From positions 1 to 57,410 of the forward strand of contig JBAZWW010000007.1 of NCBI GenBank assembly GCA_041660165.1: 57,410 nt of DNA, given 5' to 3'. Both the position numbers and the translations under genes were made by a program. This document shows, one piece after another, positions 8,883 to 44,496 of the stretch (positions within the stretch are counted from its first letter, which is position 1; each line of letters starts with the position of its first letter). A model generated the notes under the pieces. The model did no database searches. It saw only the letters and a program-made list of their open reading frames with translations, and was not told where the DNA came from. Origin of the DNA: Patescibacteria group bacterium (GTDB lineage: Bacteria; Patescibacteriota; Patescibacteriia; UBA9934).

Positions 8883-9304
8883 AGGGATGAAGCTACAATG
8901 GCGTCTTGCAAAGGGAACATCACTTCCGCATCTTCTGCCTGTTCATGGTCATAGCCTAACACGTGGAGGATGCCGTGGACGAGGAGATCAGTCAGTTCGA
9001 GTTCAAGGTCTCCGTCTTCAGCTTGGCGCACGGCTTGCTCGAAAGAAATAACGACGTCTCCCAGATACCCACTCATATCCGCTTGAGGTGAAGCAAAGGA
9101 CAGCACATCCGTCACCTTGTCCTTCTGCCGATACATCCTATTTAATCGCCTAATCTCCTCATCCGTCACCGCGCTCAAGGAAACAACGCCCTCTGGCGCC
9201 GTTTTCAGCTGCTTCTCAAAGGCGTGGGCGATCTTTTTCAACCTCGCGCTTGAAAAACGGTGCTTGGCAGGAATTAGCTCTTGAGCAAGGTCAAAGGTGA
9301 TCAT
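8879..9304 (-). CDS. ybeY: rRNA maturation endoribonuclease YbeY
   Basis: Zinc motif HGILHVLGYDH. 4-nt overlaps with both neighbours. Confidence 0.9.
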   Translation of the reverse strand: MITFDLAQELIPAKHRFSSARLKKIAHAFEKQLKTAPEGVVSLSAVTDEEIRRLNRMYRQKDKVTDVLSFASPQADMSGYLGDVVISFEQAVRQAEDGDLELELTDLLVHGILHVLGYDHEQAEDAEVMFPLQDAIVASSL

Positions 9305-10299
9305 GGGAGCAGAGTTAAGCTGTTCAGCATCATCTGGAAAGTGGTCAAGTACTCGATAGTCGTTTCCTCACCGAGCGAGTACGTCAAAGTAAACACCTTG
9401 CTCCCACCGTCTATATACGCAATGCGCTCATCCCGCTTGCTTAGGGCGAGCAAGCCCTGTGACGTATACGAAGGCTCAAGTGGCTGAGAATTTTCACTCG
9501 GCACGGTCTGCTGATACCACACCTCAAGATTTTCCGTTGGGTCTTTGGCAATCGTCGCGATCACAATAGAGGCAGTGCTGGGCGAGCGAAAAGTAACGAA
9601 GCCCGTTGTTGCGTCAACCACCGGCGTCCAAGTGGACGGATAGTAAATAGTAAATGGTGCTTCGGGACTTTGGAAAATTCGTACAGCTCCTGTGTCGAGC
9701 AAAGTCTGTGGCGCACTACCGTTAGGATGATAGCGATGAAAAACTTCATTGCCGTCAAGGAACGTATCGCCGTCCGTATCAGGATTTCGGTAATCAGTAC
9801 CGTAAAGGAGTTCCTCCACGTCCGTCAATCCGTCAGAATCCGTATCCTTGCCCGGAACTGGCACGGTTGCCACAGGAACTGGCTCCGGCACGGGTACGGG
9901 CGTTGGTTCAGGCGGAGGCGCTGTAATAACAACAGGAACTGGCATGAGGAAATAATAGTAATACGCGCCTACGCCACCCCCGGCAATCAGCAAAAGAAGC
10001 AAAAACAGGAAGATGACCACGCCAAATTTTCTTCGTGGGGCAGGCGGCTGAACCACCGGAGGCTTTGGACCAGGCGCAATGATCGGCGCCTGAGCAACGG
10101 GCGGAGGCACTGGCGTCGGAATAGGAGCCACGGCCGGAACAACAGCCGGCACGGAAACCGGAACAGGAGCGGACAACGGCTGAGCCGGCCTGCCCAAAAA
10201 CTCCCTCGGCATAACATGAAGAATCATGTCGTCCGTTTTTACGGCCGATGTCTGAGGAGCTTGGCTAGCTGATTGTGGCGCAGTCTTGTTACCGAACAT
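9301..10299 (-). CDS. membrane-anchored surface protein with TSP3-type Ca-binding repeats (paralog 1, 332 aa)
   Basis: Pro-rich N-terminus, one TM helix (VVIFLFLLLLLIAGGGVGAYYYYFLM), a PEPTPVPVPEP linker, DTDSDGLTDVEELLYGTDYRNPDTDGDTFLDGNEV, then a 170-aa unknown domain. Confidence 0.75.
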   Translation of the reverse strand: MFGNKTAPQSASQAPQTSAVKTDDMILHVMPREFLGRPAQPLSAPVPVSVPAVVPAVAPIPTPVPPPVAQAPIIAPGPKPPVVQPPAPRRKFGVVIFLFLLLLLIAGGGVGAYYYYFLMPVPVVITAPPPEPTPVPVPEPVPVATVPVPGKDTDSDGLTDVEELLYGTDYRNPDTDGDTFLDGNEVFHRYHPNGSAPQTLLDTGAVRIFQSPEAPFTIYYPSTWTPVVDATTGFVTFRSPSTASIVIATIAKDPTENLEVWYQQTVPSENSQPLEPSYTSQGLLALSKRDERIAYIDGGSKVFTLTYSLGEETTIEYLTTFQMMLNSLTLLP

Positions 10300-10318
10300 A
10301 GATGGAGCCGAGACTAGG

Positions 10319-10972
10319 CTATGGTGTTACCGGTATCTGCAAAAGCTTTCCGGGACCGTTCGGATTGAATCCCGCCGTCACCTCAGCGCCGTCTAGGAAG
10401 CCGTCACCGTCAGTATCGGTGCGGAGAGGATCCGTTCCGTAGACTTGCACCTCTTCCTTGTCCCCCAGACCGTCGCCATCCGTATCGGGATTGGTTGAGG
10501 ACGTACCAGCTTCAAGCTCTTGCGCATTTGTCAGTCCATCGCCATCACTGTCAAGAAACGTGCTTTGCCCGATCGTAGCGGTAGGCGGGGTGGCAACGTC
10601 TGGCAAAGTTGGCGCTGGCTCCGTTGGAACGGCGTTCGCATCAACAGTGCTCGCCGGCACCAGGGGCGCTCCCACCGCCGGCGTCTCAGTCTGCGGAACA
10701 ATCATCGTACTCTGAACAGGCTTCATGATGAGCGCGTATGCAAGGTAGGCAGAGCCGGCAATAACGACGAGTGCAACGAGCAGGATGATGATCGTTTTCA
10801 ACGTACCGCCCTTTGAAAGGGCGGGGTTTGAAACCCCGCCTTCTTGCGGGGCAGGCATCACCGGCGCCGGCGCGGACGATGGCGTGATTGGTGCTGGTGC
10901 TTGGGCGGGGTTTGAAACCCCGCCTTTATCTGTTCCTGCAAAAATATCTTGTGGTTCTTTGGAATCGAACAT
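10319..10972 (-). CDS. membrane-anchored surface protein with TSP3-type Ca-binding repeats (paralog 2, 217 aa)
   Basis: One TM helix (TIIILLVALVVIAGSAYLAYALI). C-terminal DSDGDGLTNAQELEAGTSSTNPDTDGDGLGDKEEVQVYGTDPLRTDTDGDGFLDGAEV. Confidence 0.75.
   Translation of the reverse strand: MFDSKEPQDIFAGTDKGGVSNPAQAPAPITPSSAPAPVMPAPQEGGVSNPALSKGGTLKTIIILLVALVVIAGSAYLAYALIMKPVQSTMIVPQTETPAVGAPLVPASTVDANAVPTEPAPTLPDVATPPTATIGQSTFLDSDGDGLTNAQELEAGTSSTNPDTDGDGLGDKEEVQVYGTDPLRTDTDGDGFLDGAEVTAGFNPNGPGKLLQIPVTP
10820..10840. repeat. intragenic palindromic 21-mer GGCGGGGTTTGAAACCCCGCC (copy 1)
   Basis: Part of an identical 24-mer (GGGCGGGGTTTGAAACCCCGCCTT) that recurs 84 nt away. Each copy encodes GGVSNPA in gene 10319..10972. 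Confidence 0.9.
10904..10924. repeat. intragenic palindromic 21-mer GGCGGGGTTTGAAACCCCGCC (copy 2)
   Basis: See 10820..10840. Confidence 0.9.
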
Positions 10973-10976
10973 ATTT

Positions 10977-11801
10977 TTATTTTTTCAGTGGATCATGTCC
11001 TGACGCTACCTCCGCCCCATCAGTATACCCGTCTCCATCGGTATCCGGGTTTTTTGGGTCAGTAAAGTATTTGGTCAGCTCTTCACCATCAGATAATCCG
11101 TCTGCATCCGTATCCACAGAGTTGAATCCATCAAGACAGCCAGCGCGCGTTTCAATCGGAACCGCGTCGCAAGCCTTGATATCCCCAGATGCTACAGCAA
11201 CAGCCGTTGCGGTGGACCGGCATTCGCTCTCCGGCACTCCAAAACCACTACAATCATTCGCTAAACGCGCCTTATCAGTGACCATAACTTCACAACCAGC
11301 CCGCACAGCCAAATCAACCACTGTCTCGCATAACGAATATTTCTTGTCTAAAACGGCTTTTGTTGAAGTGGCCACATCTGTACAAGAAATTTTTTCAGCT
11401 CCCTCAAGCGAAGCACAGGCCTCAGCCGATCCCGAATCAATCGCAATAAGAGACAAGCAGTCGGCAAAAGCTGGTCCCGTCAAGCCGTTGCACCCGTCCG
11501 CAAATCCGACAGCTCTGGCGGCATCGGATTGCGGTACGCCACTATTAACCATGTCCGCCACGGCTGTTTTCTTTTCTGCCACTACCGCCTTGGCCTGCCT
11601 GTTAGCTTGAATCATGTTCGCCGTAAAGGCAATAATGAATCCGCCGACAATCATGGCCACTACTACTGCGCCCACGATCATGCCAAAATGACGCTTTTTA
11701 TAAAGCGGGACCGGTACGGCTTCAGGTTCCGGCGTCAGCGAGTAGAAAACCTGCTGAGGCTGGGACTGAGGTGGCGATGGTGGTTGGAGTACGTCCGGCA
11801 T
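10977..11801 (-). CDS. membrane-anchored surface protein with TSP3-type Ca-binding repeats (paralog 3, 274 aa)
   Basis: One TM helix (IVGAVVVAMIVGGFIIAFTANMI), a Cys-containing middle domain, and C-terminal DTDADGLSDGEELTKYFTDPKNPDTDGDGYTDGAEV. Confidence 0.75.
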   Translation of the reverse strand: MPDVLQPPSPPQSQPQQVFYSLTPEPEAVPVPLYKKRHFGMIVGAVVVAMIVGGFIIAFTANMIQANRQAKAVVAEKKTAVADMVNSGVPQSDAARAVGFADGCNGLTGPAFADCLSLIAIDSGSAEACASLEGAEKISCTDVATSTKAVLDKKYSLCETVVDLAVRAGCEVMVTDKARLANDCSGFGVPESECRSTATAVAVASGDIKACDAVPIETRAGCLDGFNSVDTDADGLSDGEELTKYFTDPKNPDTDGDGYTDGAEVASGHDPLKK

Positions 11802-11804: not shown

Positions 11805-14800
11805 TTAAGGAGCGCAGTAATTAAGACGGACATCGGAAATCGTAATCTGGCCCGTTCCGCCAAAGGAAACGTGAATCGGCACCTGCTGTTCATGCACGCC
11901 GTCGCACTTCAGAAACTCTGGCCACGGAAGAACCTGCCCCGCGCCCTCATGCAAAACTACGGATGAAGCCACAACCGTGTTATTGGCGTCCGCGCTGAGG
12001 AGAGAAACCGTTATTCCCGTAATAGATTTAATGATCCCATCATAGGCGCTGGCCAGTTCAGTTGGCGTATGAGCGTCATAGGCGTAATCCACTCCATTGC
12101 TGGTATTTGTTTCAAGCGGACCGGTCCTCAGAGAGAAAGAGTTGCTTGACCATTTCTTCATGTTCTCAATGAGCGAGTACGTGTCGGTTAAGGCCACGGT
12201 ATAAATCTCATAATCTCTTTGTGATGCCTTAATACTATCGGCTGCGTCGTTAGTAACGGATAGCGCGTCTGCAGTTCCTTCCGGTTGTCCGTCAGAAAGA
12301 AGAATGATGATGTTGCGAGTATTGCTGGCGTTCGGCAGAGCATCAAGCAGGCCCTTGGCTGAAAGCAAGCCAAGCCCGGTCTGCGTGCCATTCTGCGCCT
12401 TGGCATCATAGGCATTGATACGGGAAGTGAGCGTGGTCTTTGCGTCCTTACCGCAGAAACCAAAAGTACAAACAGTCTGACTCTGCATCTTTGCCGTACA
12501 AATGCCTCCAGCCCCACACTCGCCATCTACAACGCCATCACAACTCTGGTTGTATAGATCATTGTGTGGTCTTGGATTTGTGCACATACCCGTCCCAGCG
12601 ATACCTGAGAAGCCAACCAAACTAATGTGCGCATGCTCGCCAAAAGCAGTAAAGACGGAGTTCACGGCAGTGGCCAAGGATGCCTTAACCGCATTGATGC
12701 GCGATGGATCAACGTAGTTTTGATTGATAGTAACCCCGTCAGCCTTGTAAAGACTCCTCCCTGCAAAATCCCAATCCATGGAACCGGATCTATCAGTAAC
12801 GAACACAATATTCACTTCCGGAGGAGTCACATTGTTCATGGAAACCGTCCCCGTGAGCTGGCCCACCAATGTACAGGCCGGAATGGTCAGAGTGGCCGCG
12901 TTCGGCAAAAGCGAAGTTGATGAGGAGCTGTAACTGTTCAACTCCACGCTTGAGGAGGCCCTGGATCCTGGAAGATTCGGCAGTAAGAGCGTGGGGTTGG
13001 TTGAGAAGGAAAATGGACAAGCACTGGCACAGCTATTGGAGCATTTTGGTTTTACACAAGCGATGCCGGTGCCACAAACCGTCATGTCGTACGGAATAGA
13101 AGAAATCGTTGTGTTAGTGCAATACTCGCCATTGCGGGGACCGCCATTGCAAATCCCAAGGTCAGCACAGTGATAAAGATCCTGGCCAACAGTTGTAAAA
13201 CCGGTTGGCGTAGAACATGAACCGGCAGTCTTGCCCGTCCCGGCATCATAATATGTCAGCTGAACATCAGAACCGTCGCAAAACTCAGTACCATTTCTTA
13301 CGCCGTCTCCGCAGAAAGCACCTGATGAAACCACATTTCTACAAGACACGGAGCACGCCGTACAGGTAGATCCGTAAGTTGAGGAACAGGACTGGCCGTT
13401 CTGCACGCCAAGATCACATTCTTCAACGCCTACATAATAGGCACCATCGCCACACACATTCGTCTTGCAGGAATTCGTACAACTATCAGAAGAATCCGTG
13501 TTGCCATCATCACACTCCTCACTCCCTTCTTTCTTGCCATTACCACAGGCAGAGAGAGCGGTGCACTTAATAAACCGGTAATTTGGAGTTACCCACTGAC
13601 AGGCCGTTCCATTACTGCCGTTGCCACAGGCCCGGATGCGAGAAGTCTGATAAGTCTGAGCCGAACATATGCCATCTGTTCCGCAACTGGAGTTTTGCGC
13701 ACAAATATGTCCAAGCTTGGCAGGATCTCCCGCCGTACAAACGGTAGAAAGAGGGCAAGCATCCGCCCACGCATACGGCCCAAGCGCAGTCATACCGCAT
13801 GTCCCGCCGGATCCGCAATCCGCATCCGTAGTACAAGGAGCACCGGTTTTTGTAGCCCCCGGAGTACACAGCTTGCCCTGATATGAATCGGTATTGCCAT
13901 CACAAACCTCGCCATTCCCCGCGTCCACTTTTGTGTCCCCGCAATAGGACGCAGGGCCAGAACAATCCCACGCGCAAGAAGAAGTTGCAGACGATTGATA
14001 AACGCCGTTCAATCCTCCGCAGATGCCTCCGCCAAATGCTCTGCGCCCAATGAGAGGAGGGGTACTTCCGCAATCACATTTCTCGCTACCAGCAAGCGAG
14101 CCATCTCCGCAGGAGAAACCGCTAGCCCTGGTACAATCAAATCCGCAAAAACCGTATTTACCGTTTTGCGCGCCGTCATCACATTCCTCCGCACCTTCTT
14201 TTAAGCCGTTGCCACAAGCATTGCTGACGCAGGCAGATCCCGAATCCGGAACAAAGGCTGTACACGAGGCATTACAAACTTGCGAGCGGAAACCGTCATT
14301 CACGCCGTCATTATTGCCATCGCAGGCCACCACCAGACCACCATGCTGGCCAAGCTCACACGTTTCGCCCCCGCCAATAACGCCATCTCCACAGGAAGCG
14401 GAGGTGCCATATGTCACACCCACGCAATATGACGCAGGGATGAAGCCATTACCCGTGTTCGCCGCTCCGCCAATCAAAACATCCACCCGGTCAGCTGGGC
14501 CATCCGTATCAATCGGACTGCCCCACTGCGCAGAGTATTCCAAGTCTGCAGTAATGCGCGCCGAACGGTTGCCCGTGGCAATGTAGTGATACACGTGCGA
14601 ATTGACCGGACAAACATATGCGCCCTTTGACTGGTCTACGCATGTAGCCGAATCAAATGAGACAAACGGACCGCCAGCGTTCCCGCAAGAATTCTTTGAA
14701 AAGACGTTCAAAGGGTCCTGTGCAATATCTTTCATCTCAAGCGCCCCGCCAAGGATATCGCTCCAAGACGGCCACGGACTGACGGCGATACTGCGCACAA

Positions 14801-17800
14801 AAGTTCCTGCGGACAGTTCCGGAACAATCGGAATGCATGATTCCGTTCCAGGGCACTCCCCGCCTGTACTACAAAGCTGAGCACCTGTCCCGCTACAAAC
14901 ACCGTTTTGTGTCCCGTACTTCTTAATTTCCGTACGCAAATCAGTCATGTCAGAAAGTCTTCTGATATCTCGGCGAACCTTCGCTTTCACGGAAGAACAC
15001 GCACGTGGAGAAATAGGACTAAGAGGACAGTCGCTATCGGCCGAGCAAGACGCGCTTGTCACCGCGCCGTTTACCGTACAGAGCGTCACGTCATTCATGT
15101 TAGAAGCAAACGCGAATGAAGACAGCAAAGCATCAGCAATTTTCTTCGTGGTGTCGCTCGCTCCATCATTATACGAAATGACGTAAATATTATCGTACAA
15201 CACGTTTGCCCCCAGATTCGGCGCGGCCACATAGGTTGACCGGCCGTCCTTCACCGCCAAAAAGCCATCAATCGTTGTCTCCTGCGGGGTTCCCTTAAAA
15301 TTCTGTGCCGTGTACCACGCGCGCGGAGAAAGGTAATCCGGGTTACTAAGAACCCGAACGCCAATGGCATCGCCTGATCCGTCCGCAGTTTCAAACAAAT
15401 ATTCCTTAATCACCCCTCCCGCCTGTGAGACAGGGGGCCTCACCACCGTCATACCCGGCAAATCGTCTGACACGCCGGCTATACCCGCGTCACGGCAGTA
15501 ATACGTAGAGAAATTCATCCAGCCGTTAGCCCCTTGCGACGCCAAGCCGTTCGCCCCGCCCCTGGCCGTATCTTCCCAAGGAAACTTGGATAATTCCGGC
15601 CACGGATTTTCACAAAGGAACGCAATAAGTGGCGCGGTACCAGAAACCACTTTCTCCCTTGGCGTGCCCGTGGTGGAGCCAAGAGCATCCGTAGTAATGG
15701 TTGCCTCAGCCAAAAGCGTGCTTCGGCCGTTCTTGCCCTTCACCGCCACATCCGCCAAATCATGCTGGGTGGCGCTCCTGGTGGCGGTAAACAAATCAGC
15801 ATTTGCCGGGGCCCACGCGGTGTAATCCCAAGCGTATGTGCCAGGGAGCGATTCAATCTCGCGCGTGGCGTTGCCTACGTATGAAAGCGCGCTTGTTTTG
15901 AACGTATGCACATCATCTCCGCGCGTAAACGCATTCGGGCTCTTCTTGTTTGTGTCGAGTACCTGAACGGCATCAAGCGAACACAGGCTCGGACCCGTCA
16001 TAAACACGGAAGAGACGGTTCCGCTCATGCCAACGCCTGTGGCCGAACGCACGCCGTCAGTAACCGCGTCTGAGATATCTTCATCTCCCTTCACAACAAG
16101 CATGTATGTAGTATTTGGCACAAGCGGTTTTGAGTAGCGCAGGTACACCCTATACGTTCCATCCGCTTGAGGAACCTGGTCAAAACCGTCAATCGGAAGA
16201 ACGCAGGCAACACCCGTATTTGGCGCCGCCTCAGCAGACGCGCCGGTCAAAAATCTCACAAAAGCATTTCTTGCCTGCGCAAAAATATTCTTTGGATCAT
16301 GCGCCAAATACGTGTAACCGGACGGACACGCGCCTGCAGTTAAGGAGTGGAATGAAAGATACATTCGATATTTCTCCGTAGTGATGGCCCCCGCCGTTTC
16401 TTTAAACGTAAAACTCGACGTGTCCATCTTTTGATTGAAGACGGCGTACAGCGATTGGTTCAAGCACACGGAGGTGCCGGAAGACGGATACGGAACCGCG
16501 GTTGGGCGAAGCGAACAGCAATTGTTTGTTCCCGCACCGTTTAGCCGTGGGTCACGGCAGTCCCGGTCTGAAGATGCCGAACAGGCAAGCGAGAGGCTGG
16601 CGGTAGTTGAAAGCCCCGAAGAAGATTCCTTAACCTCAATTGATGCGTTAGCCATTCTTGTTACGGCATCCACTTCAAATACCGCATCATCACGAACAAC
16701 CGCCGTTTGCGTAGGATCAATTCTACCGTCGCCACCGGCACTGACCTCACAGGAATAATTTTCCCCAGCGCCCAAATTCCCATCACCGCAATACGATGGA
16801 ACAAGGTACTGCGCGCTTGAACCCTCAAGGAGACAAGTGCTTGAACAGCCATCGCCGGAAATCCTGTTCCCATCTTCACACTCCTCACCCGTTCCCGGAA
16901 TAATATCCCCGCAGACTGATGGTGCCGTATAACGCGATGAAGAACCCTCAAGCAAGCATGAGGAAGAACAACCGTCGCCATTCACAATATTCCCATCATC
17001 ACAATTTTCTGCTGGTTTGTCCGTCCGGTCATCACCGCAAACTGCTCCGCCAATGGAAGCAAGCGTTGGCGTCCCCTCATTCAAACACTGAGAAGAACAG
17101 CCGTCGCCATTTTTTGCGTTGCCGTCATCACATTCCTCGCCAGCCTTAGTGGTTGTATCCGCGGCAATGTCATGGTTCCCGCACGTGGCGCCAACAAAAC
17201 GCGAACCCTCCGCCAGACAGAGTGAAGAACACCCGTCTCCGTCTGCTTTGTTCCCGTCATCGCAATCCTCACCCGCTCCAGAAGATGAACGTTCTACTCG
17301 GCCATTCCCGCACGTCGTGCCGGCGGTCGAGTTCCCTTCTCGTAAGCAGGAGGAAGAACAGCCGTCGCCGTTCGCTACGTTGCCGTCTTCACATTCCTCG
17401 CCCGCCAGTGCGTCTGCCGTGCCGTCCCCGCAAATAGCGGAATACGCCACGCTTCCTTTTGACGTACATGAAGCGGTACATGACGTTGAGACAGATGACG
17501 GAGAAGTGTCAACCATTGTTCCGCCCAGCCACTCAGCTACCCTGGTAGAAGAGTCATTATCAATATTTTGGTCTTTGATTGGATCCGTCCAGGCCCAGCT
17601 ATAAGAGAACCCCGTCAAGCGCTGGCCAGATGCGGAACAGCTATCCGCCGCGCCAAATGCTGAGGAAGAAAATGAGGCGCGATCCCCCGTTGAGCGGAGC
17701 GTGATAGCAGAAGGGGCGAGCGCTACGCGGTCAACCGCACACGCAGAGCCGTCTTCCCTGGCCCGGAACGTCCAAGAATAATCTCCGCCATCATTTGTTT

Positions 17801-20800
17801 GAATAAGACGAACTCCACTTTCGCTTGTGACACTGCCGGAAATAACCGCCCTGTAGAACGTGCCGGGTGTCAGAGCCAGATTGCCCAGTGTGAAGCCGGT
17901 GCACAGCCCCTGCGCGCCCGTCACAGTCACACAAGATGCCCGGACTCCGCCGATTTCCGTCACACTCGTACAAAGCTCATACGCGCAAGAGAAAAGTTTT
18001 ACAGCACCAACACGTTCAACACTGGATGAATTCATGGGGATATTAAACGTTCCGCCCACCTGCGCGTTTGGACAAGCTGAATCACAGGCCGGCCACGTAC
18101 CAGTCACATAAGGATCAAGGAAATTGATGGCCAGGTTTCCAGCTGATTTGATATCGCTACCCGTCTCTGAAGCCGTCACCGGGGTTTCTCCCTCAGCCAG
18201 CGCCTCAACCGTAGTACAGGCAGAGGCTCCGCCAACGCAGGCCGGATTCGCCGCGCTGTTGAAACGCGTAATAGAGGGACTAGCATCCCAGCTCCAGGAA
18301 TAACTAGCTGAATCCACAGGGACACAACCCGCAGTGGGAACCGCGCTAAATGATTTCGTTCCGCCAAGAAGAGTAATGACGCCCTTGGCCGGAGTGACGC
18401 GCACGCTGTCAATGGTGCAGGGCGCGCTTGTTGCCTGTGTCACGAAGGTCCAGGAAACATCGCGAGCGAGCCCGGCCCCGCCCGTGGAGACCGCCACCGT
18501 GGTCACCGTTACTCTGTACGTTGAGCTGACCGCCAGCGAAGCGCCTGGAATAAAAGTGAAGGATGTTGGCGTCGTTCGGAGAGTTCCTGAAGCAGAGATA
18601 ACGGCTGAACACGGGTTTGTACCCTGGCCGGTACAGCGGTCCACTTTCACGGCGTCATTCAGCGTTCCCTCATTCATAGCCTCCGTAAATTCTGCGTACA
18701 CCACCGCATTCGTACACACCAAATCCGTAAATTTGTTATTTGGCACGGCACTCACCCGATCCGCTGAACATTCAGTCACCAGCTGTGGTACATGAGGGAT
18801 GGCACCCGTAGAAAAACTCCAAGCATAGCCAGCGGTTGATCCCGCGCCGGCGGATACACCGCTCGTTACCTCAAAAAAGGTATCGTTCCCCTTTGTACCC
18901 GTGCTCGAAACCAATTTTACAGCTCCCGTTTTTGCCGCGGAAGGAACAGGAACTTTAATTTCCGTTGGCGACCAGGAAGCAATATTCGTCTGTGCTCCAT
19001 CCGCAAACGTAACGGTCCCCGTTGCCGTTCCGAATTGATTGCCAACCAGAGACACCGTGTCTCCTACGGCGCCAGTGCCAGGAATGACTCCGCAAACATT
19101 CGGCGCGCTATCATCAGCTGTAACTGTAAACGGCACCGTATTTGATGATTGACTGCTTGATGTTGTTACAGACACGTCATAGACGCCAACAGCCAGCGCC
19201 ACAGCAGAAGTATATTTTGCGGGAACAATGAAGCGGATCTGGTTGTTCGTCCATGGATTGATGGCGGAGCACGCCGTAGGGAAATCAATACTGCCAATTG
19301 CGGAATCTCCCGTAGCGCGGTTCACAAACTTCACTGTCCCCTTTGACGCGCCAAAGTTCGCTCCGTCAAGCGTGACATATCTGCCGATTCCGCCAGTTGC
19401 CGGAGAAAGCGTTGCTATAGATGGCAGGGTCCCTGTAGTTGAGACAGTTGAGGCCACGCGCAAAGAAAGCGCATTCGAAGAAATGCCATTCACGGAAACA
19501 GAAACAGGGAACGTACCGTTTGGCATCTGAGGCACTGTTGTCATGATTGAAGAGTTCGTCCATGCTGAATAGCTTCCCGCGCTCCCCTGCGTGCCAAAAT
19601 TCACCGTAGATGTTCCGCGGTTCGCGCCAAAATTATCACCAATTAGCCCAAGGGAATTTGTAGGAGAGACACTGTTTTTGTCGAGCGAACAAAGATTCGG
19701 ATGGATAACCGTATTCACGGCAAAGTTTGGAAGCACCGGTCCGTGATCATTAGCGGTGTCATCTTTCCTTGTCCCCCCGCTTGCAGTAACCGTAATTAGT
19801 CCGGAGACTGTAGTTGCTGGAACAATGACAATGATTTCTCTATCCGTCCAAGCACCTCCGCATGGCGCAACCACCGCCTCAACAGGACCATTCGCTCCCG
19901 TAAAGGAAACCTTCCCGGCAGAAGAACCAAAACCCGTACCGGCAATGGTTACATATGTTCCTGGCGCTCCAGAATCCGGCGATACCGCATTGATCACCGG
20001 GTTTTCAACACATCGTCCGGCCTCGCACAGACCGCTTCCGCAATCGGCATTTGCCGTACACGCGCCCCCGCTACACGCCCCGCAAAAATTCGGGCTGAGC
20101 GCGTCACCCCCGCAATCAATACCCGTTTCGCCACTTCCCGTATCAAGAATCCCGTTAAAGCAAGAGGCAGGTTTCACCCTCACCGTCACCGCATCAGTAT
20201 CCGTGTTGCCGGCCAGATCAGAAACCTGGGCAGAAACGCGATAGGATTTTCCGTTCTCTAGTCCGGCAGTATCCCAAAGGTCATCAATCGTCACGCTCTT
20301 CAAATCAGCGCCCGTAGCTGTCACCTCATCAAACAGGACATCACCAACTAAGAAACCGGCGGAAGCCACGCCCGCATCATCCGTAGCCTGAACCTGTACA
20401 GGTTGAGTGCTATCAGCAGGAACCGTTTGGTTATTGTCTGGCAAGGTCATGTGCGCTACCGGATTCTTCGTATCAACCACGGCCCCGCTCGTGAACCCGC
20501 CGGTACACGGCTTGGCAGTTGAACAGGTGAGCGTCAGGCCAGCTGTGCTCTTGAGCGTTGGTAAAACAGAAATTGAATAGGCGGTGGACGCGTCAAAACA
20601 GAAACGAGTCTCATTCGGCGTAGCGCATGGCGCGTCAGGATGGAAAGTGATCGTATTGCCGGCCACGGAAGAAACGCCAGGAACTTCAACATTGGTGGTT
20701 GAGTTCACAATCTTCAACTGGCCGTTCATGCTGGCCGGATCAATGGATTTGCTGAACGTCACGCGAACCAGGGCGTTCTGAATAGTGATCGTTCCGGCTG

Positions 20801-21290
20801 GCGAAATACCCGTCACTAATAGCTCTGAAGCTCCCCCCGTCCCGCCTATTCCCCCGCCCCCTCCACCCGCACCACCTCCGCCCCCTCCCGCACCACCAGC
20901 GCCCGTAGCACTCAAAAGTGCGGACAAGATAAAACTGACAATTGACCAAGAAAGCAGAATGATAACCAGCCCGATAGCTCCGCCAATCAAGATCTTCTTA
21001 GCTCTGCCCACTTTTTTCTCATCACCCGCAGCGGTCATCCACACAAATCCGCCGTAAAGCACAATGACCACCGCCACCACGCCAAGGAAAGAAATGGCCG
21101 TCCGGATAATCCGCGCAACAATAATCTTTGGATCAGTATTCCCAAGCCCGGTAGCATCGCCCACCGTGGTTAACCCGGTCTGGACATCACTAGTCTGCGC
21201 AAACGCCGGGACCGCAAATGCCAAGGAAGACACGGCGCTCAAAGCGACGAGTGACCCAAGCGCAAGTTGTTTAAGGCGTTTTATGTTCAC
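11805..21290 (-). CDS. giant multidomain surface protein (3161 aa): pilin-like membrane hairpin, poly-Gly linker, Ig-like and IPT/TIG repeats, Cys-rich repeats, C-terminal vWA
   Basis: Single uninterrupted 9486-nt ORF. Domain calls rest on motifs listed in the sub-features below. Antisense ORFs in the track are shadows. Confidence 0.9.
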   Translation of the reverse strand: MNIKRLKQLALGSLVALSAVSSLAFAVPAFAQTSDVQTGLTTVGDATGLGNTDPKIIVARIIRTAISFLGVVAVVIVLYGGFVWMTAAGDEKKVGRAKKILIGGAIGLVIILLSWSIVSFILSALLSATGAGGAGGGGGGAGGGGGGIGGTGGASELLVTGISPAGTITIQNALVRVTFSKSIDPASMNGQLKIVNSTTNVEVPGVSSVAGNTITFHPDAPCATPNETRFCFDASTAYSISVLPTLKSTAGLTLTCSTAKPCTGGFTSGAVVDTKNPVAHMTLPDNNQTVPADSTQPVQVQATDDAGVASAGFLVGDVLFDEVTATGADLKSVTIDDLWDTAGLENGKSYRVSAQVSDLAGNTDTDAVTVRVKPASCFNGILDTGSGETGIDCGGDALSPNFCGACSGGACTANADCGSGLCEAGRCVENPVINAVSPDSGAPGTYVTIAGTGFGSSAGKVSFTGANGPVEAVVAPCGGAWTDREIIVIVPATTVSGLITVTASGGTRKDDTANDHGPVLPNFAVNTVIHPNLCSLDKNSVSPTNSLGLIGDNFGANRGTSTVNFGTQGSAGSYSAWTNSSIMTTVPQMPNGTFPVSVSVNGISSNALSLRVASTVSTTGTLPSIATLSPATGGIGRYVTLDGANFGASKGTVKFVNRATGDSAIGSIDFPTACSAINPWTNNQIRFIVPAKYTSAVALAVGVYDVSVTTSSSQSSNTVPFTVTADDSAPNVCGVIPGTGAVGDTVSLVGNQFGTATGTVTFADGAQTNIASWSPTEIKVPVPSAAKTGAVKLVSSTGTKGNDTFFEVTSGVSAGAGSTAGYAWSFSTGAIPHVPQLVTECSADRVSAVPNNKFTDLVCTNAVVYAEFTEAMNEGTLNDAVKVDRCTGQGTNPCSAVISASGTLRTTPTSFTFIPGASLAVSSTYRVTVTTVAVSTGGAGLARDVSWTFVTQATSAPCTIDSVRVTPAKGVITLLGGTKSFSAVPTAGCVPVDSASYSWSWDASPSITRFNSAANPACVGGASACTTVEALAEGETPVTASETGSDIKSAGNLAINFLDPYVTGTWPACDSACPNAQVGGTFNIPMNSSSVERVGAVKLFSCAYELCTSVTEIGGVRASCVTVTGAQGLCTGFTLGNLALTPGTFYRAVISGSVTSESGVRLIQTNDGGDYSWTFRAREDGSACAVDRVALAPSAITLRSTGDRASFSSSAFGAADSCSASGQRLTGFSYSWAWTDPIKDQNIDNDSSTRVAEWLGGTMVDTSPSSVSTSCTASCTSKGSVAYSAICGDGTADALAGEECEDGNVANGDGCSSSCLREGNSTAGTTCGNGRVERSSSGAGEDCDDGNKADGDGCSSLCLAEGSRFVGATCGNHDIAADTTTKAGEECDDGNAKNGDGCSSQCLNEGTPTLASIGGAVCGDDRTDKPAENCDDGNIVNGDGCSSSCLLEGSSSRYTAPSVCGDIIPGTGEECEDGNRISGDGCSSTCLLEGSSAQYLVPSYCGDGNLGAGENYSCEVSAGGDGRIDPTQTAVVRDDAVFEVDAVTRMANASIEVKESSSGLSTTASLSLACSASSDRDCRDPRLNGAGTNNCCSLRPTAVPYPSSGTSVCLNQSLYAVFNQKMDTSSFTFKETAGAITTEKYRMYLSFHSLTAGACPSGYTYLAHDPKNIFAQARNAFVRFLTGASAEAAPNTGVACVLPIDGFDQVPQADGTYRVYLRYSKPLVPNTTYMLVVKGDEDISDAVTDGVRSATGVGMSGTVSSVFMTGPSLCSLDAVQVLDTNKKSPNAFTRGDDVHTFKTSALSYVGNATREIESLPGTYAWDYTAWAPANADLFTATRSATQHDLADVAVKGKNGRSTLLAEATITTDALGSTTGTPREKVVSGTAPLIAFLCENPWPELSKFPWEDTARGGANGLASQGANGWMNFSTYYCRDAGIAGVSDDLPGMTVVRPPVSQAGGVIKEYLFETADGSGDAIGVRVLSNPDYLSPRAWYTAQNFKGTPQETTIDGFLAVKDGRSTYVAAPNLGANVLYDNIYVISYNDGASDTTKKIADALLSSFAFASNMNDVTLCTVNGAVTSASCSADSDCPLSPISPRACSSVKAKVRRDIRRLSDMTDLRTEIKKYGTQNGVCSGTGAQLCSTGGECPGTESCIPIVPELSAGTFVRSIAVSPWPSWSDILGGALEMKDIAQDPLNVFSKNSCGNAGGPFVSFDSATCVDQSKGAYVCPVNSHVYHYIATGNRSARITADLEYSAQWGSPIDTDGPADRVDVLIGGAANTGNGFIPASYCVGVTYGTSASCGDGVIGGGETCELGQHGGLVVACDGNNDGVNDGFRSQVCNASCTAFVPDSGSACVSNACGNGLKEGAEECDDGAQNGKYGFCGFDCTRASGFSCGDGSLAGSEKCDCGSTPPLIGRRAFGGGICGGLNGVYQSSATSSCAWDCSGPASYCGDTKVDAGNGEVCDGNTDSYQGKLCTPGATKTGAPCTTDADCGSGGTCGMTALGPYAWADACPLSTVCTAGDPAKLGHICAQNSSCGTDGICSAQTYQTSRIRACGNGSNGTACQWVTPNYRFIKCTALSACGNGKKEGSEECDDGNTDSSDSCTNSCKTNVCGDGAYYVGVEECDLGVQNGQSCSSTYGSTCTACSVSCRNVVSSGAFCGDGVRNGTEFCDGSDVQLTYYDAGTGKTAGSCSTPTGFTTVGQDLYHCADLGICNGGPRNGEYCTNTTISSIPYDMTVCGTGIACVKPKCSNSCASACPFSFSTNPTLLLPNLPGSRASSSVELNSYSSSSTSLLPNAATLTIPACTLVGQLTGTVSMNNVTPPEVNIVFVTDRSGSMDWDFAGRSLYKADGVTINQNYVDPSRINAVKASLATAVNSVFTAFGEHAHISLVGFSGIAGTGMCTNPRPHNDLYNQSCDGVVDGECGAGGICTAKMQSQTVCTFGFCGKDAKTTLTSRINAYDAKAQNGTQTGLGLLSAKGLLDALPNASNTRNIIILLSDGQPEGTADALSVTNDAADSIKASQRDYEIYTVALTDTYSLIENMKKWSSNSFSLRTGPLETNTSNGVDYAYDAHTPTELASAYDGIIKSITGITVSLLSADANNTVVASSVVLHEGAGQVLPWPEFLKCDGVHEQQVPIHVSFGGTGQITISDVRLNYCAP
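12140..12821 (-). other. von Willebrand factor A (vWA) domain with MIDAS motif, interrupted by a Cys-rich insert
   Basis: VNIVFVTDRSGSMDW (the DxSxS MIDAS motif; Asp codon at 12792..12794), later NIIILLSDGQP and YTVAL. Confidence 0.7.
13010..14400 (-). repeat. Cys-rich repeat region, block 2 (degenerate CGDG/CGNG...ECD...C units)
   Basis: SCGDGVIGGGETCELG, ACGNGLKEGAEECDDGAQNGKYGFCGFDC, ACGNGKKEGSEECDDGNTDSSDSCTNSC, VCGDGAYYVGVEECDLG, FCGDGVRNGTEFCDG. Boundaries are approximate. Confidence 0.6.
16790..17445 (-). repeat. tandem Cys-rich repeats, block 1 (about 6 units; CG(D/N)G..EECDDGN..GDGCSSxC)
   Basis: CGDGTADALAGEECEDGNVANGDGCSSSC, CGNGRVE..GEDCDDGNKADGDGCSSLC, CGNHDI..GEECDDGNAKNGDGCSSQC and further units. 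Matches the myxococcal cysteine-rich repeat / DUF4215 pattern. Boundaries are approximate. Confidence 0.7.
18850..20000 (-). repeat. IPT/TIG-like Ig repeats (about 4-5 units) within the giant protein
   Basis: Recurring P-x-I-x-x-(V/L)-SP-x-x-G-x-x-G-x-x-V-T-(I/L)-x-G-x-x-FG units: PVINAVSPDSGAPGTYVTIAGTGFG, LPSIATLSPATGGIGRYVTLDGANFG, CGVIPGTGAVGDTVSLVGNQFG. Boundaries are approximate. Confidence 0.6.
20913..21152 (-). other. TrbC/VirB2-like (T4SS-pilin-like) two-helix membrane module of the giant protein, followed by a poly-Gly linker (20829..20906)
   Basis: GLGNTDPKIIVARIIRTAISFLGVVAVVIVLYGGFVWMTAAGDEKKVGRAKKILIGGAIGLVIILLSWSIVSFIL, then GAGGAGGGGGGAGGGGGGIGGTGG. Alignable with the N-terminus of the next gene. 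Confidence 0.6.
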
Positions 21291-21299: not shown

Positions 21300-23060
21300 T
21301 TAGAAGAGCGAACACGCGGTTGCTGAGGCCGTACCATTGCAACAATAGGGTTGGGATGCGGACACTCCGCATGTTCCGCCAGAAGCATCAGGGCCCACGG
21401 CGGGGACATAACAATTCTGGTACTCGTTGCGCAAATCCTGCGTTGCCTCTGTCCCGTAGACGTAGGATTTTCCATCCGTGGATTCAAGGAAAGTGCCGTG
21501 CGCAATGGTCACCACCGTTTGCGCAGGAACCTGGGAAGATGAAGCAACCACGTCGCCGTTTGCCGTCAAATACGAAAGTCTTGTCGAGTACCACATCTCA
21601 TGCGAAGTACCGCCTATCAGCTCCTTATTCGTCAACAGAATGCTATCTGATGATACTGAGGAACTCTGGAGAACGCCGTCAAACGTAGCCGTCACCGCCT
21701 GATCAAGCGGAACACTTTCTTCAGCAATGTTCGGGGCCACGGACAGGATCTTGGGGCCAGTGAGCGCAATGTCGCCCGTAGTTGAGAAGCTCCACGCATA
21801 CGCGTCCCCCGCCGAGCCATCACCGTTTCCATCAAGTGAATTTCCGGCCATATCCACCACGCCATTGTACGGGAAATTATCAGCCTGTGGCGGGGCTGTG
21901 GTGGTGGTTGCGGATTTTATGGAGACTGAGAGACTTGAACTGCCCGGCAAACACATGATGGTCTGACCGCAAGAATTTGTTCCGCAGGGATTTGCGGGAA
22001 CAAACGTCAGCGCTGTGTAGCCGTTGGAAATTTCATAGGTTCCCGGGGTAGTAGTTCCGCCCGCGCCAACCGTAATATTATCGAATCCGCTTGTGTCGCC
22101 CCTTGTACCGGTAGCTGAAGTGGGATCAATGGGCTCAGAAAATGTAGCCTGCACCGAAATATTCCTCGAATATGTGCCAGAATTCCCCGGAGTAACCGTC
22201 ACGATCGAAGGAGGCGTCAGATCGAGAACGGTGCCCGTTTCAAATGACCACTGGTATCCGCCGGAAAAACTCCCGCTAAAAATCTTGGCCCCGCCAACAT
22301 TCTTAATATCTGCGGTCAAGGCCACGGTGTACTGCACTTTGGCGCTGGCTGAACCAAGCGGATCCGCCAGCTTCAAAACAAACGTCTTGCCGTCAGCCGT
22401 GCCGTTCACCGTAATAGCACTTGCAGGCAAGGACGCCGTTGCCCCCTGCGCAGTTGGATAGATCTTCACTGAAGACGCAGTAACTGAAGCTGGATCAAGC
22501 GCATCCTTAAACGTAATCATGATCTTTGTATTCCTCGGAACACCGGTTTGATTTCTTGCCGGGAAGTGGTCGCGAATCGGTCCACTGCCGAGTGCTCCCG
22601 ACAATCGCTCAACAGACACCCCTCCGTTGTTAGCTCCCCCGCCTCCGGCCCCGCCAAAGCCCGTAGCCCCGCCAAGCGCGTTCACAATAAAGGTGGTGAT
22701 GCCGTACGCGCCAAGCGTGATCACGATACCAATCGTAGCGTTAATCAAGATGCTCTTCGCCTTCTCCACCTTCTTATGATCGCCTCCCGCTGTCATCCAA
22801 ACAAAACCGGCGTACATGAAGAGAATGAGAAAAACAACGCCCAGGATGCCAAGGAAAACACTAATAATCCGGCCTACCAGCGAAGGGAGGTCGGAATTTC
22901 CCAGCCCTGCCGTTTGCGCTACTTGATCCGTATTTGAAAGCGCCTCAGTCTGAGCAAACACCACCGGCGCGGAAACGAAAAAGCCCCCCGTCAGGACAAG
23001 GATTGTGAAAATAACATTCTTAGCCCAACGGCGTAGCATAGCTCCCGCACATTTTACCAC
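21300..23060 (-). CDS. surface protein (586 aa) with the same pilin-like N-terminal module plus Ig-like (SbsA/Big-type) repeats
   Basis: GLGNSDLPSLVGRIISVFLGILGVVFLILFMYAGFVWMTAGGDHKKVEKAKSILINATIGIVITLGAYGITTFIVNAL + GGATGFGGAGGGGANNGG (module about 22674..22910). The start could instead be Met8 at 23039. Confidence 0.85.
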   Translation of the reverse strand: MVKCAGAMLRRWAKNVIFTILVLTGGFFVSAPVVFAQTEALSNTDQVAQTAGLGNSDLPSLVGRIISVFLGILGVVFLILFMYAGFVWMTAGGDHKKVEKAKSILINATIGIVITLGAYGITTFIVNALGGATGFGGAGGGGANNGGVSVERLSGALGSGPIRDHFPARNQTGVPRNTKIMITFKDALDPASVTASSVKIYPTAQGATASLPASAITVNGTADGKTFVLKLADPLGSASAKVQYTVALTADIKNVGGAKIFSGSFSGGYQWSFETGTVLDLTPPSIVTVTPGNSGTYSRNISVQATFSEPIDPTSATGTRGDTSGFDNITVGAGGTTTPGTYEISNGYTALTFVPANPCGTNSCGQTIMCLPGSSSLSVSIKSATTTTAPPQADNFPYNGVVDMAGNSLDGNGDGSAGDAYAWSFSTTGDIALTGPKILSVAPNIAEESVPLDQAVTATFDGVLQSSSVSSDSILLTNKELIGGTSHEMWYSTRLSYLTANGDVVASSSQVPAQTVVTIAHGTFLESTDGKSYVYGTEATQDLRNEYQNCYVPAVGPDASGGTCGVSASQPYCCNGTASATACSLF

Positions 23061-24873: not shown

Positions 24874-24901
24874 ATCTTAGCAAAAAGTGGGGTTTTGTCA
24901 A
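24874..24901 (-). promoter_or_regulatory. sigma70-like promoter: -35 TTGACA (24896..24901), 16-nt spacer, -10 TAAGAT (24874..24879)
   Basis: Read on the minus strand. Perfect -35, 4/6 match at -10. Confidence 0.4.
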
Positions 24902-36855: not shown

Positions 36856-37850
36856 GCTTTTGTGTATGACTTGAGCGCCTTGCTGGAAATTTCCTCCTGC
36901 GTGTGTGCGTCAAGGAACAAGAGATGGAAGCCGTCACTCTTCCGCACAGGAATTACCGCCAGCTTGCCAACAGCTCCCTCCGTAAACCACAGGCGGAGCA
37001 AGCCATCATTCTGCACCGCCTCCTGGGCCAAGCGACGGGCAAAGAGATCAATAGAAAGTTCGTCATCCACGCCGTGATAGCCGTACAGCCGTGGATTATC
37101 CACAATAATTCTTGCCAGCGTCTGGGTAATCCCATCCCCCGGCTTCACGATCGCCTTTTCAAAGTGCTCGGGAATTAAGACCGAATGATCGCCTGTCTCC
37201 GTATTGGTCATCCTGCGCGCTAACGAGGAATCTGATTGCACGCGATCACTCTTAGAAATCTCCTTCAGCTCATGCACGGCATCATCCGCAGAAAACGCCG
37301 AAAGCGCATCATCAATCCGCAATCGGAGATCAGTAATTGTCAGCGTATCCATGGTTGGCATCGCATCCCAGAGAGCTAGCGTGGCATACGCATATGCTCG
37401 GGCGCGCAAAATTTCACCAAGCGCCAGAAGCCCGTTATACGCACGCTCCTTTTTGTTTGCGCCAACGGGAAAAACAAGCTTGCCCGCGCGCTGAGCAAAC
37501 GCCGTTGCCACCGCCTCTCGGGCTCGATCAGGGGAAACGGCGCTAGAAACAATGACCGTTTGGGCATGCAAAGCGTGGCGCCCGGCTGTCTGGCGCAATT
37601 TCGCAAAGGCCGGATTGCTCGCCCCGCCCTTCACGGCATTCTCAAGAATCTTGGCCATAGCCCGCCCGCAGTCATCGTCCGCTTTCACCCTCTGCTCCTC
37701 CGCCTCAACCCAAAGTTTTTGCAGACTTGCCATGATCCGGCTCCTGTTCGCAGGCTCCAAAGAACGCAAAGCTTCTACGCGCTCCGCCATCCGCTTTGAC
37801 CGCTCATGGAGAGCGTCGTATTCAATCGCGTGATTGTTGAGCTTCGTCAT
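36840..37850 (-). CDS. hypothetical protein (336 aa), third gene of the orphan operon
   Basis: ATG at 37850..37848 overlaps the upstream TGA (ATGA coupling). The ORF-track start at 37892 is less likely. No TM helix or signal peptide. No recognised family, apart from a weak LysM-like stretch IVKPGDGITQTLARII. Confidence 0.6.
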   Translation of the reverse strand: MTKLNNHAIEYDALHERSKRMAERVEALRSLEPANRSRIMASLQKLWVEAEEQRVKADDDCGRAMAKILENAVKGGASNPAFAKLRQTAGRHALHAQTVIVSSAVSPDRAREAVATAFAQRAGKLVFPVGANKKERAYNGLLALGEILRARAYAYATLALWDAMPTMDTLTITDLRLRIDDALSAFSADDAVHELKEISKSDRVQSDSSLARRMTNTETGDHSVLIPEHFEKAIVKPGDGITQTLARIIVDNPRLYGYHGVDDELSIDLFARRLAQEAVQNDGLLRLWFTEGAVGKLAVIPVRKSDGFHLLFLDAHTQEEISSKALKSYTKAKPRI

Positions 37851-44198: not shown

Positions 44199-44220
44199 AG
44201 TCGGGAGTAGTCTATCACAA

Positions 44221-44244
44221 AAGGACCCCCCGAAGGGAGTCCTT
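44221..44244 (-). terminator. hairpin AAGGACCCC-CCGAA-GGGAGTCCTT + T-run downstream of tRNA-Leu
   Basis: Read directly. Lies only 22 nt upstream of the parA start. Confidence 0.6.
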
Positions 44245-44245
44245 T

Positions 44246-44331
44246 TGGTACCACAGGAGGGACTCGAACCCTCAATCCCGTGAAGGAAACGGATTTTGAG
44301 TCCGTCGCGTATACCATTCCGCCACTGTGGC
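44246..44331 (-). tRNA. tRNA-Leu (anticodon CAA), class II with long variable arm, CCA encoded
   Basis: Anticodon stem ACGGA/TCCGT with loop CTCAAAA. T arm GAGGG-TTCGAGT-CCCTC. Acceptor GCCACAG/CTGTGGT (G1.U72). Confidence 0.88.
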
Positions 44332-44383
44332 CCAATTACCAAGCCGAACGATTCTAACAAAAACTTAACGGGTTCGCAAGGAC

Positions 44384-44491: not shown

Positions 44492-44496
44492 GCGAA

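Follow-up and report, generated by a model that had tools for sequence, protein, structure and literature searches.

Modular pilins have been defined for type IV pili, and the available part of that study shows the metal-ion-dependent adhesion site (MIDAS) of PilB to bind Mg/Mn and to be flanked by protruding 'arms' (PMC8179133). For Patescibacteria, the accessible text of a survey of type IV secretion systems (T4SSs) reports small VirB2-like pilins of the family PF18895 in 1,948 assemblies, with 2-11 genes in each array, and mentions that PrgB-like adhesins went undetected (PMC12102498). According to the excerpted description, Saccharimonadia build their Pam pili in another way, by means of Ig-fold pilins and donor-strand exchange (PMC13278184). 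In the available portions of two preprints, one on the structure universe finds that PF18895 dominates freshwater clusters, and one on giant genes concerns Omnitrophota. Here we analyzed a 57,410-nt stretch of DNA (the window; contig JBAZWW010000007.1 of assembly GCA_041660165.1) from a Patescibacteria group bacterium, in which one gene encodes a 3161-residue protein, hereafter the giant protein, with a VirB2-like pilin module at one end and a vWA/MIDAS head at the other. We think it somewhat more probable than any opposite view that the giant protein is a membrane- or pilus-anchored, metal-dependent surface adhesin fibre. We found this family described nowhere in the full-text literature that we searched, though long PF18895 proteins may appear in the supplementary tables of PMC12102498.

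Architecture of the giant protein

The original prediction, made from the DNA letters alone, had claimed a single 9.5-kb open reading frame (ORF), and 11805..21290(-) is indeed open over 3161 codons from a GTG start, without an internal stop. The gene begins 9 bp from the stop of the upstream gene, ends 3 bp before the start of the downstream gene, and takes up 0.87% of the 1.09-Mb genome (1.087 Mb in 11 contigs, rated 100% complete; the window has ~52% G+C). Domains were mapped by whole-protein Pfam and NCBIfam scans, followed by Pfam on ten overlapping 400-aa tiles. This tiled check upheld nearly all of the predicted domain calls, including vWA and IPT.

The N-terminus carries the signal-like segment and the two-helix pilin-like hairpin that had been predicted. 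Residues 8-32 are hydrophobic and A31 is invariant in 46 orthologs. The Pfam family T4SS_pilin (PF18895) matches aa 63-121 above its cut-off of 26.6 bits in the whole protein (34.0 bits), in the tile (37.2 bits) and in the genome scan (39.7 bits), and two hydrophobic stretches (aa 55-90 and 94-131) are joined by a loop with five basic residues. Among 114 homologs the hairpin is one of the best-conserved stretches (mean identity 0.56 over aa 51-100), a level that, judged from the alignment, seems to exceed the need of a passive anchor. The N-terminal tile gave no N_methyl or T2SSG match at E<=1, the models looked at for a type IV pilin class III signal or N-methylation motif, and the pilin family profile found no relative among PDB sequences (best E 0.77).

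PF18895 matches ten proteins of the genome, namely the giant protein, its upstream neighbour, two mid-size proteins on contig C2 and six small tandem ones on contig C3, which in alignment have the common motif YGGFxWMTAGGD.KKV..AK.IL. Over residues 31-130 the giant protein shares 50/86 positions (58%) with a 136-aa pilin that its genome encodes as a stand-alone protein, and the module matches the 586-aa upstream neighbour at 48/100; identity to the six tandem pilins ranges from 22/60 to 50/86. The 136-aa pilin terminates in '...TATTA', and at the same aligned place the giant protein reads '...SATGAGG...' and enters its Gly-rich hinge. Because the end of the small pilin aligns with the start of the hinge, the giant protein amounts to a small pilin plus a hinge plus a cargo of ~3,000 residues, and its N-terminal hairpin is a bona fide VirB2-like pilin module.

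The six tandem small pilin genes (113-205 aa; G000:C3:97131-99732, L077:8868-11763) are flanked by genes for a solute-binding protein and for polysaccharide functions (Polysacc_synt, Wzy_C), not by T4SS genes. The two mid-size proteins, of 494 and 520 aa (L078:3752-5236 and L079:3310-4872), have the pilin hairpin in mid-protein behind a Cys-rich N-terminal extension; one adjoins a DsbA-like gene and the other has a weak Peptidase_M15 match (E 0.006). A VirB4-like ATPase (P-loop_TraG, E 1.4e-27) is encoded at L080:3728-5641, flanked by proteins of 529, 231 and 185 aa that have no Pfam family and could be other T4SS parts. This VirB4-like gene is on contig C2 and the giant gene on C7, where it does not lie beside virB4 or other T4SS genes.

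At the opposite end, a structural model of aa 2760-3161 (m23e75e02c320, 38 sequences; pLDDT [predicted local distance difference test] 86.5, pTM [predicted template modelling score] 0.88, with values <50 only at aa 2904-2937) has strands from both ends of the segment forming a beta-sandwich that holds an inserted vWA fold of the Rossmann-like alpha/beta type. Foldseek matched this model to PitA (E 5.3e-12), PilB (E 1.6e-10; TM-score 0.43, root-mean-square deviation [rmsd] 4.1) and SpaC (E 2.6e-10), followed by ITIH1, integrin beta3, Mfa5 and the LapA vWFA domain. There were at least 496 PDB matches at E<=0.001, and the best 50 of these are almost all vWA-domain proteins. The family profile of the head likewise matched PDB chains of collagen VI (E 1.4e-20), SpaC, PilB, PitA, the GBS104/RrgA type, Mfa5 and LapA vWFA. 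Pfam VWA (PF00092) scored 22.8 bits in the whole protein, with a cut-off of 23.8, and 29.8 bits in the C-terminal tile (aa 2949-3037); the match covers profile positions 59-142 only, as a domain split by an insert would give. The predicted vWA domain is thus borne out by tile, profile and fold.

The DRSGS sequence at aa 2833-2837 opens a MIDAS motif of the form DxSxS...T...D, made up of D2833, S2835, S2837, T2969 and D3000. The claim that the motif is intact holds up in the 114 homologs, of which 111 keep D2833, 101 S2835 (10 more have T), 90 S2837 (19 more have T), 96 T2969 and 110 D3000. The C-terminal region around these residues is conserved less than any other part of the protein, with an identity to the query of 0.09-0.30 over aa 2851-3050 versus ~0.4-0.6 elsewhere. 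The Cys-rich insert predicted to split the vWA domain is present in the giant protein but is no family trait: the segment varies from 20 to 140 aa, 54/114 homologs have no Cys there and 35/114 have four or more. Orthologs also have extra insertions at three other vWA loop positions. A conserved metal site amid variable loops is what one would expect of a binding face that determines specificity. Two loci (L012:11291-12934 and L018:8172-9854) carry whole DUF4215 repeats plus ~200 residues inside the vWA domain, past the last MIDAS Asp.

Between the two ends lies a series of Ig-like, TIG and Cys-rich modules (Table 1). The predicted Ig-like (SbsA/Big) units correspond to Big_5 (67.4 bits in the whole protein, cut-off 23.6) and Big_7 (24.1 bits, cut-off 24.1). 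The eight-Cys knot that follows has no Pfam family match, and all eight Cys are kept in at least 80% of homologs; a plexin-like PSI-IPT order for the knot and the TIG array was considered and dropped, as Pfam gave no PSI match. The IPT/TIG array (PF01833, 66.7-71.3 bits, cut-off 20.9) was predicted to have four or five units; the array itself stands, and as to the count the hidden Markov model (HMM) delimits three stretches and reading gives four units. In the next two Ig pairs, the Big_2-like partners are suggested by analogy with a third, modelled pair. Six tandem Cys repeats had been claimed beyond these. TIGR02232, the 'myxo' cysteine-rich acidic repeat of NCBIfam, does cover six stretches (140.6 bits, cut-off 20.8) and DUF4215 five (65.3 bits in the whole protein, cut-off 27), but the regular expression CG..E.C[DE]DGN..GDGCS..C finds five complete units and a degenerate sixth. 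The second Cys-rich block was also correctly foreseen; it has further DUF4215 matches and most of its Cys are conserved. In total the giant protein has 138 Cys, 120 of which are kept in at least 80% of the 114 homologs, and the genome has a DsbA-like gene; both fit extracytoplasmic oxidative folding, with the Cys residues presumably in disulfides. There is one RGD motif, at aa 1790.

The ~700 residues left unassigned by the original prediction are now largely assigned through an AlphaFold model of aa 1500-2330 (me1ee602c41c3, from 49 orthologous sub-sequences; pLDDT 86.4, pTM 0.80). Foldseek returned only Ig arrays for this model (surface-layer [S-layer] proteins SbsB and SbsC, cadherins). It was then compared by VIA-align with ~48,000 chains, among which a Z of 7-8 is common by chance, and so long a model hides single domains. 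Residues 1595-1767 resemble a CopC/Big_5-like Ig domain (Z 10.4, rmsd 2.3, 95 aligned) and aa 1770-1893 a Big_2-like Ig domain (Z 9.5 to LigA and SbsC). The next domain, aa 1894-2066, probably has a PsbP/Mog1-like fold according to the model: within the long model 110-129 residues aligned to BT_1490, LpqN, PA94, Mog1 and PsbP, with middling Z (9.6 for BT_1490, 9.0 LpqN, 8.1 Mog1, 8.0 PsbP). Residues 1951-2050 are among the more conserved stretches of the protein (mean identity 0.53). In aa 2067-2288 the model places a 28-residue helix on strands, stapled by conserved Cys. VIA-align, which barely tested model residues 568-800, gave no fold match for this domain; the ESM Atlas matches of aa 2060-2300 (best 0.85, type-IV-pilin-like clusters at 0.80-0.82) are all below 0.9 and serve as leads only, and a search of PDB sequences with the family profile of aa 1890-2300 yielded no relative (best E 0.67).

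Table 1. Features of the giant protein and of its immediate neighbours, with window coordinates
Feature	Residues	Window position	Strand	Basis
Signal peptide (putative cleavage between ...AFA and QT)	1-31	21198..21290	-	hydrophobic aa 8-32
VirB2/T4SS_pilin-like two-helix hairpin, basic loop DEKKVGRAKK	32-127	20910..21197	-	PF18895 match
Gly-rich hinge, 19 Gly/26	128-153	20832..20909	-	sequence
Ig-like block: Big_5 (aa 159-251), Big_7 (aa 277-327)	159-375	20166..20816	-	Big_5 E 1.5e-7, Big_7 E 6.3e-6
Eight-Cys knot, immediately N-terminal to TIG array	377-427	20010..20162	-	sequence
IPT/TIG array, 4 units by reading	431-812	18855..20000	-	PF01833, 3 HMM stretches
Two Big_5 + Big_2-like Ig pairs	840-1285	17436..18773	-	Big_5 at aa 847-951 and ~1060-1176
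DUF4215/myxo_disulf_rpt repeats, 5 full + 1 degenerate	1287-1515	16746..17432	-	TIGR02232, PF13948, regular expression
Third Ig pair: CopC/Big_5-like (aa 1595-1767), Big_2-like (aa 1770-1893)	1595-1893	15612..16508	-	model and VIA-align
Probable PsbP/Mog1-like alpha/beta domain	1894-2066	15093..15611	-	VIA-align, middling Z
Long-helix and sheet, Cys-stapled domain	2067-2288	14427..15092	-	model, pLDDT mostly >85
Second Cys-rich block, DUF4215-like units	2289-2758	13017..14426	-	DUF4215 near aa 2350 and at aa 2575-2609
Beta-sandwich with inserted vWA/MIDAS head	2760-3161	11808..13013	-	model, Foldseek, family profile
Variable Cys-rich insert in vWA	2893-2962	12405..12614	-	pLDDT <50 at aa 2904-2937
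Paralog pil586 (586 aa): same pilin hairpin, Gly hinge, Big_5		21300..23060	-	PF18895, Big_5
Three single-pass membrane proteins with TSP3 Ca-binding repeats (274, 217, 332 aa)		9301..11801	-	TSP3_bac E 9.5e-13, 8.6e-19

The Gly-rich hinge had been described as a 26-residue Gly run encoded at about 20829..20906. The DNA was located closely enough (20832..20909) and the region does span 26 residues, but it is not pure, with 19 Gly and a longest unbroken run of six. A hinge of 27-47 aa and varying sequence is present in 114/114 homologs. The suggestion that this DNA is prone to slippage found no support, as TRF detects no tandem array and the Gly codons are mixed GGN; contigs do, however, end inside this stretch, as described below. 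Two groundwater metagenome runs, belonging to two studies, contain 99% of the sampled words of the giant gene; they are possibly the window's own source and so not independent of it. Logan contigs of both runs span 11700-20901 of the window with no inserted or missing letters. They differ from the window once, by A>T at 17981, which replaces Tyr1104 with Asn, the consensus residue of the family there; the window may carry a minor variant or an assembly error at this point. Contigs of both runs stop within the poly-Gly DNA, at 20893-20901 and 20848-20850; such breaks could arise because G-rich sequence is poorly covered or because the stretch varies in length, and contigs cannot discriminate between the two.

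Conservation and gene neighbourhood

A word-indexed search returned 347 matches. The 120 listed are almost all 3,050-3,600 aa long, 31-51% identical and covered to ~100%, and among the matches listed those with a name are Patescibacteria or Candidatus Uhrbacteria. Their database names are generic ('IPT/TIG domain-containing', 'DUF4215 domain-containing', 'cysteine-rich repeat protein'). A profile of the central module found 1,634 cluster representatives at E<=0.001, 1,329 of them at E<=1e-30; the module nearly always lies at ~aa 1,850-2,600 of proteins of 3,000-4,000 aa, and the shorter ones look like fragments.

Occurrence was counted with the central module in species-representative genomes, class membership being taken from kinship labels and family numbering. 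The module is present in 144/162 genomes of the order, in 121/129 of those that are at least 90% complete and in 54/55 genera. It is also present in 23/23 sampled genomes of the other orders of the class, in every sampled family of the class, and in 1 of ~375 genomes of the other classes of the phylum. It is nearly always found once, in one long frame. Of the order's genomes, 18 lack a match, and most of these are fragmented or incomplete. The giant gene belongs, in single copy, to the core gene set of one Patescibacteria class. The 'unusual domain chain' of the original prediction is therefore a misleading label: the same architecture is the norm in more than 100 full-length homologs, which align with the giant protein end to end, and belongs to a near-universal single-copy gene of the order. 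Among the Uhrbacteria, Falkowbacteria and Magasanikbacteria relatives, which we take to belong to GTDB class ABY1, a distant Falkowbacteria ortholog has the complete domain set with an unsplit VWA (profile positions 1-150, E 5.9e-15), and a Magasanikbacteria ortholog (L064:4931-14293) has Laminin_G_3, a concanavalin-like lectin domain, at aa 2377-2519, where the giant protein has the second Cys-rich block.

The gene neighbourhood is conserved as well. Synteny was assessed in 76 related loci, each neighbour being counted only where the flank was sufficient; 48 of the 76 have one frame of 2,900-3,700 aa. All on the same strand and in a fixed order, the string consists of the pilin-Big_5 paralog, the giant gene, genes for TSP3 membrane proteins, ybeY, ftsA and ftsZ. 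The paralog lies upstream in 59/65 loci, and downstream are a TSP3 protein (61/63), the 332-aa protein (59/62), ybeY (59/62), ftsA (55/55) and ftsZ (47/48). From hflX to ybeY the gaps in the window are 3, 9, 3, 4, 19 and -4 bp. The TSP3-like motifs of the 332-aa neighbour were recognized by reading together with a weak CglD-repeat match, and BLASTP of its C-terminal part against the central module of the giant protein gave no similarity (E>5). A small ORF between ybeY and ftsA seems, from its sequence, to read like dgkA. In three of the 76 loci (L031, L053 and L069) the giant gene is present as two large adjacent frames, for which a frameshift, a true division of the gene or faulty assembly could account.

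Five genomes of other classes, a small sample, were inspected for the same region. In one of them, which lacks the giant gene, a TSP3 protein precedes ybeY and ftsA, so that the TSP3/ftsA linkage is independent of the giant protein, and the TSP3/ybeY/ftsA linkage may be older than it. At this locus (L086:11588-12787, genome G169) a 399-aa TSP3-motif protein is followed by ybeY, a small ORF and ftsA. Two of the five have an apparently ordinary division/cell-wall cluster, judged on ORF sizes alone.

A promoter and terminator scan of 5500-25000 found sites no more frequent than in shuffles. One promoter-like site with 10/12 matches lies at 24901..24874(-), upstream of hflX, between it and a Fic/DOC gene; the latter encodes a protein with an N-terminal helix-turn-helix at 24950-25873 (-), just upstream of the hflX-to-ftsZ string. 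Elsewhere in the window, GC skew (-0.237) and AT skew (-0.133) are both at their most negative in 38001-40000, over a 796-aa ORF at 37847..40237(-). A tRNA-Leu(CAA) and two tRNA-Met(CAT) genes cluster at 44246-44746 (-), and the 364-aa mechanical ORF at 43431..44525 overlaps two tRNA genes and is probably not a gene.

Proposed function and alternatives

We propose that the giant protein works as follows. Its Sec signal peptide would be removed, and the conjugation-type pilin hairpin would hold it in the cytoplasmic membrane with the basic loop in the cytoplasm and both ends outside, because a signal peptide, two hydrophobic helices and five basic loop residues occur together; by the positive-inside rule, basic loops lie on the cytoplasmic side. 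After the hairpin, a flexible Gly-rich hinge would lead into ~3,000 disulfide-rich residues that may form a long extracellular stalk of Ig-like and IPT/TIG domains, Cys-knot repeats and the PsbP/Mog1-like domain. At the distal end, the vWA domain in its beta-sandwich would present the MIDAS metal site amid lineage-variable loops. Pilus-tip vWA adhesins and integrin I-domains bind an acidic group of the ligand via a metal ion, and the head would likewise bind an acidic ligand group through a metal ion, the ligand perhaps belonging to a host, to an adjacent cell or to a surface. Binding to a ligand or a host surface, as suggested in the original prediction, is thus consistent with the structural matches to vWA pilus adhesins and the conserved MIDAS, but is unproven.

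Several points weigh against this proposal. The whole-protein VWA score is just below the Pfam cut-off, three MIDAS positions vary (S/T) in some homologs, and one of three distant orthologs scanned (L058) has no VWA match. That the ligand is borne by a 'host' is an assumption. Moreover, strict single copy, class-wide presence and tight synteny by ftsA/ftsZ are atypical of host-specific adhesins, and a housekeeping role in the envelope fits that conservation equally well.

Such a role is one alternative: together with pil586 and the TSP3 proteins, the giant protein might form a Ca-bridged coat or spacer for envelope integrity or division, its head binding a partner on the cell's own surface. 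Besides its single-copy, class-wide conservation, the invariant gene order with gaps of 3-19 bp into ybeY, ftsA and ftsZ, the TSP3 repeats in three co-encoded membrane proteins and the Ig-array matches to S-layer SbsB, SbsC and Sap point this way. The Ig matches are generic, however; a single membrane-anchored chain of 3,161 aa is unlike known lattice-forming S-layer proteins; the linkage of TSP3 and division genes exists without the giant gene in one of the five other-class genomes; and the MIDAS face is the most variable part, which speaks for an external ligand that changes and not for a constant partner on the cell itself. We give this structural role a rather slim chance. A minor though real chance goes to the giant protein being a pilus subunit: the Patescibacteria T4SS would pull its module out of the membrane and polymerise it together with the small VirB2-like pilins, leaving the cargo at the tip or side of a conjugation-type pilus, and the giant protein would be to VirB2-type pilins what PilB is to type IV pilins. 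Both termini of the pilin point outward in the solved F and T pili. The module could almost be exchanged for any of the six tandem small pilins of the genome, the hairpin is conserved far beyond what passive anchoring would need, a VirB4-like ATPase is encoded in the genome, and the available description of PilB provides a precedent for bulky modules on pilins (PMC8179133). Nevertheless, neither the VirB4-like gene nor the small-pilin array shares a contig with the giant gene, and a 300-kDa cargo on each subunit is sterically implausible, which would leave at most sparse or tip incorporation.

That the gene is an assembly artefact or a decaying pseudogene is extremely improbable. The contigs of both runs do end in the poly-Gly DNA and the gene is in two large frames at 3/76 loci, but 48/76 loci, of different species, have the one long frame, end-to-end alignment extends to over 100 homologs, the two runs (perhaps source data) cover 11700-20901 without an indel, and 120/138 Cys are conserved.

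Much of bacterial diversity falls within the Patescibacteria, and to our knowledge the class carrying the giant gene has no cultured representative. With its pilin anchor, long stalk and integrin-like head, and its retention as a single-copy gene throughout the class, the giant protein is a strong candidate for the attachment of these ultrasmall, uncultured groundwater cells to hosts or surfaces. The cost of a 9.5-kb gene, 0.87% of a streamlined genome, and its retention in single copy indicate a central function. Its pilin-module N-terminus ties it to the T4SS, the one secretion system known to be essential in a cultivated relative. The published T4SS survey, in its accessible text, reported no adhesin (PMC12102498), and the giant protein is a candidate for the missing one. 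The conserved scaffold with a variable MIDAS face would be a concrete specificity determinant that could guide host prediction, co-culture and cryo-electron tomography. The furthest-reaching possibility, which we put forward as speculation and consider doubtful, is that this is the first modular conjugation-type pilin: in an ultrasmall monoderm, a T4SS-built VirB2-like shaft capped or decorated by the giant protein, its integrin-like, metal-dependent head with lineage-specific loops ~100 nm out, would form with the paralog and the three TSP3 proteins a class-defining attachment organelle, supplying the missing T4SS adhesin and determining host choice. If true, the 'modular pilin' concept would extend from type IV pili to conjugation-type pilins.

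Comparison with known systems

The type I-secreted giant adhesins LapA and SiiE also have a very long Ig-repeat stalk and Ca-binding elements nearby, and LapA has a vWA domain (9no5; E 1.1e-7 by Foldseek, 7.4e-10 by family profile). Unlike them, the giant protein has a Sec signal and a pilin hairpin, and a fixed series of differing modules rather than a variable tandem array; it contains no RTX GGxGxD motif, C-terminal type I secretion signal or RTX family in Pfam scans, and its organism is presumably a monoderm. The CglB/CglD and MtsD proteins of Myxococcus, adhesins of gliding and cohesion, draw on the same toolkit of vWA, TSP3 Ca-binding repeats and 'myxo' Cys-rich repeat. The TSP3 repeats of the neighbours match the CglD/MtsD models weakly and in the repeats only (31 bits versus a cut-off of 400), with no sign of homology beyond them. 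The S-layer proteins SbsB, SbsC and Sap match the giant protein in their Ig domains only, and Pfam scans of the giant protein gave no SLH match.

The tip adhesins of sortase-assembled pili, SpaC, PitA, RrgA and GBS104, are the best Foldseek and profile matches of the head and, like it, have a vWA domain in a beta-sandwich with variable arms round the MIDAS. In contrast to these, the giant protein is anchored by its N-terminus in the membrane, and in a Patescibacterium; it has no LPxTG or LPx[ST]G anywhere and its C-terminus reads ...RLNYCAP. At the other end of the chain, the small PF18895 pilins belong to the same family model and have an array in the giant protein's own genome too, but are ~110-200 aa long and carry no cargo, as far as the accessible text describes them (PMC12102498).

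PilB of Streptococcus sanguinis (PDB 7b7p/7ba2) combines both ends: according to the available part of its description it is, like the giant protein, a pilin module carrying a grafted vWA/MIDAS adhesion module (PMC8179133). Its adhesion module matches the giant protein's head both in structure (E 1.6e-10) and in the profile search (E 4.5e-14). In PilB, however, the pilin module is of type IV and the signal peptide of class III, whereas the giant protein has a VirB2/T4SS_pilin hairpin and a Sec-type signal; and PilB has 426 residues with a short loop between its modules, where the giant protein has ~2,600 residues of stalk. The giant protein thus resembles a modular pilin in its working, but it is not a member of the type IV, PilB-like modular pilins.

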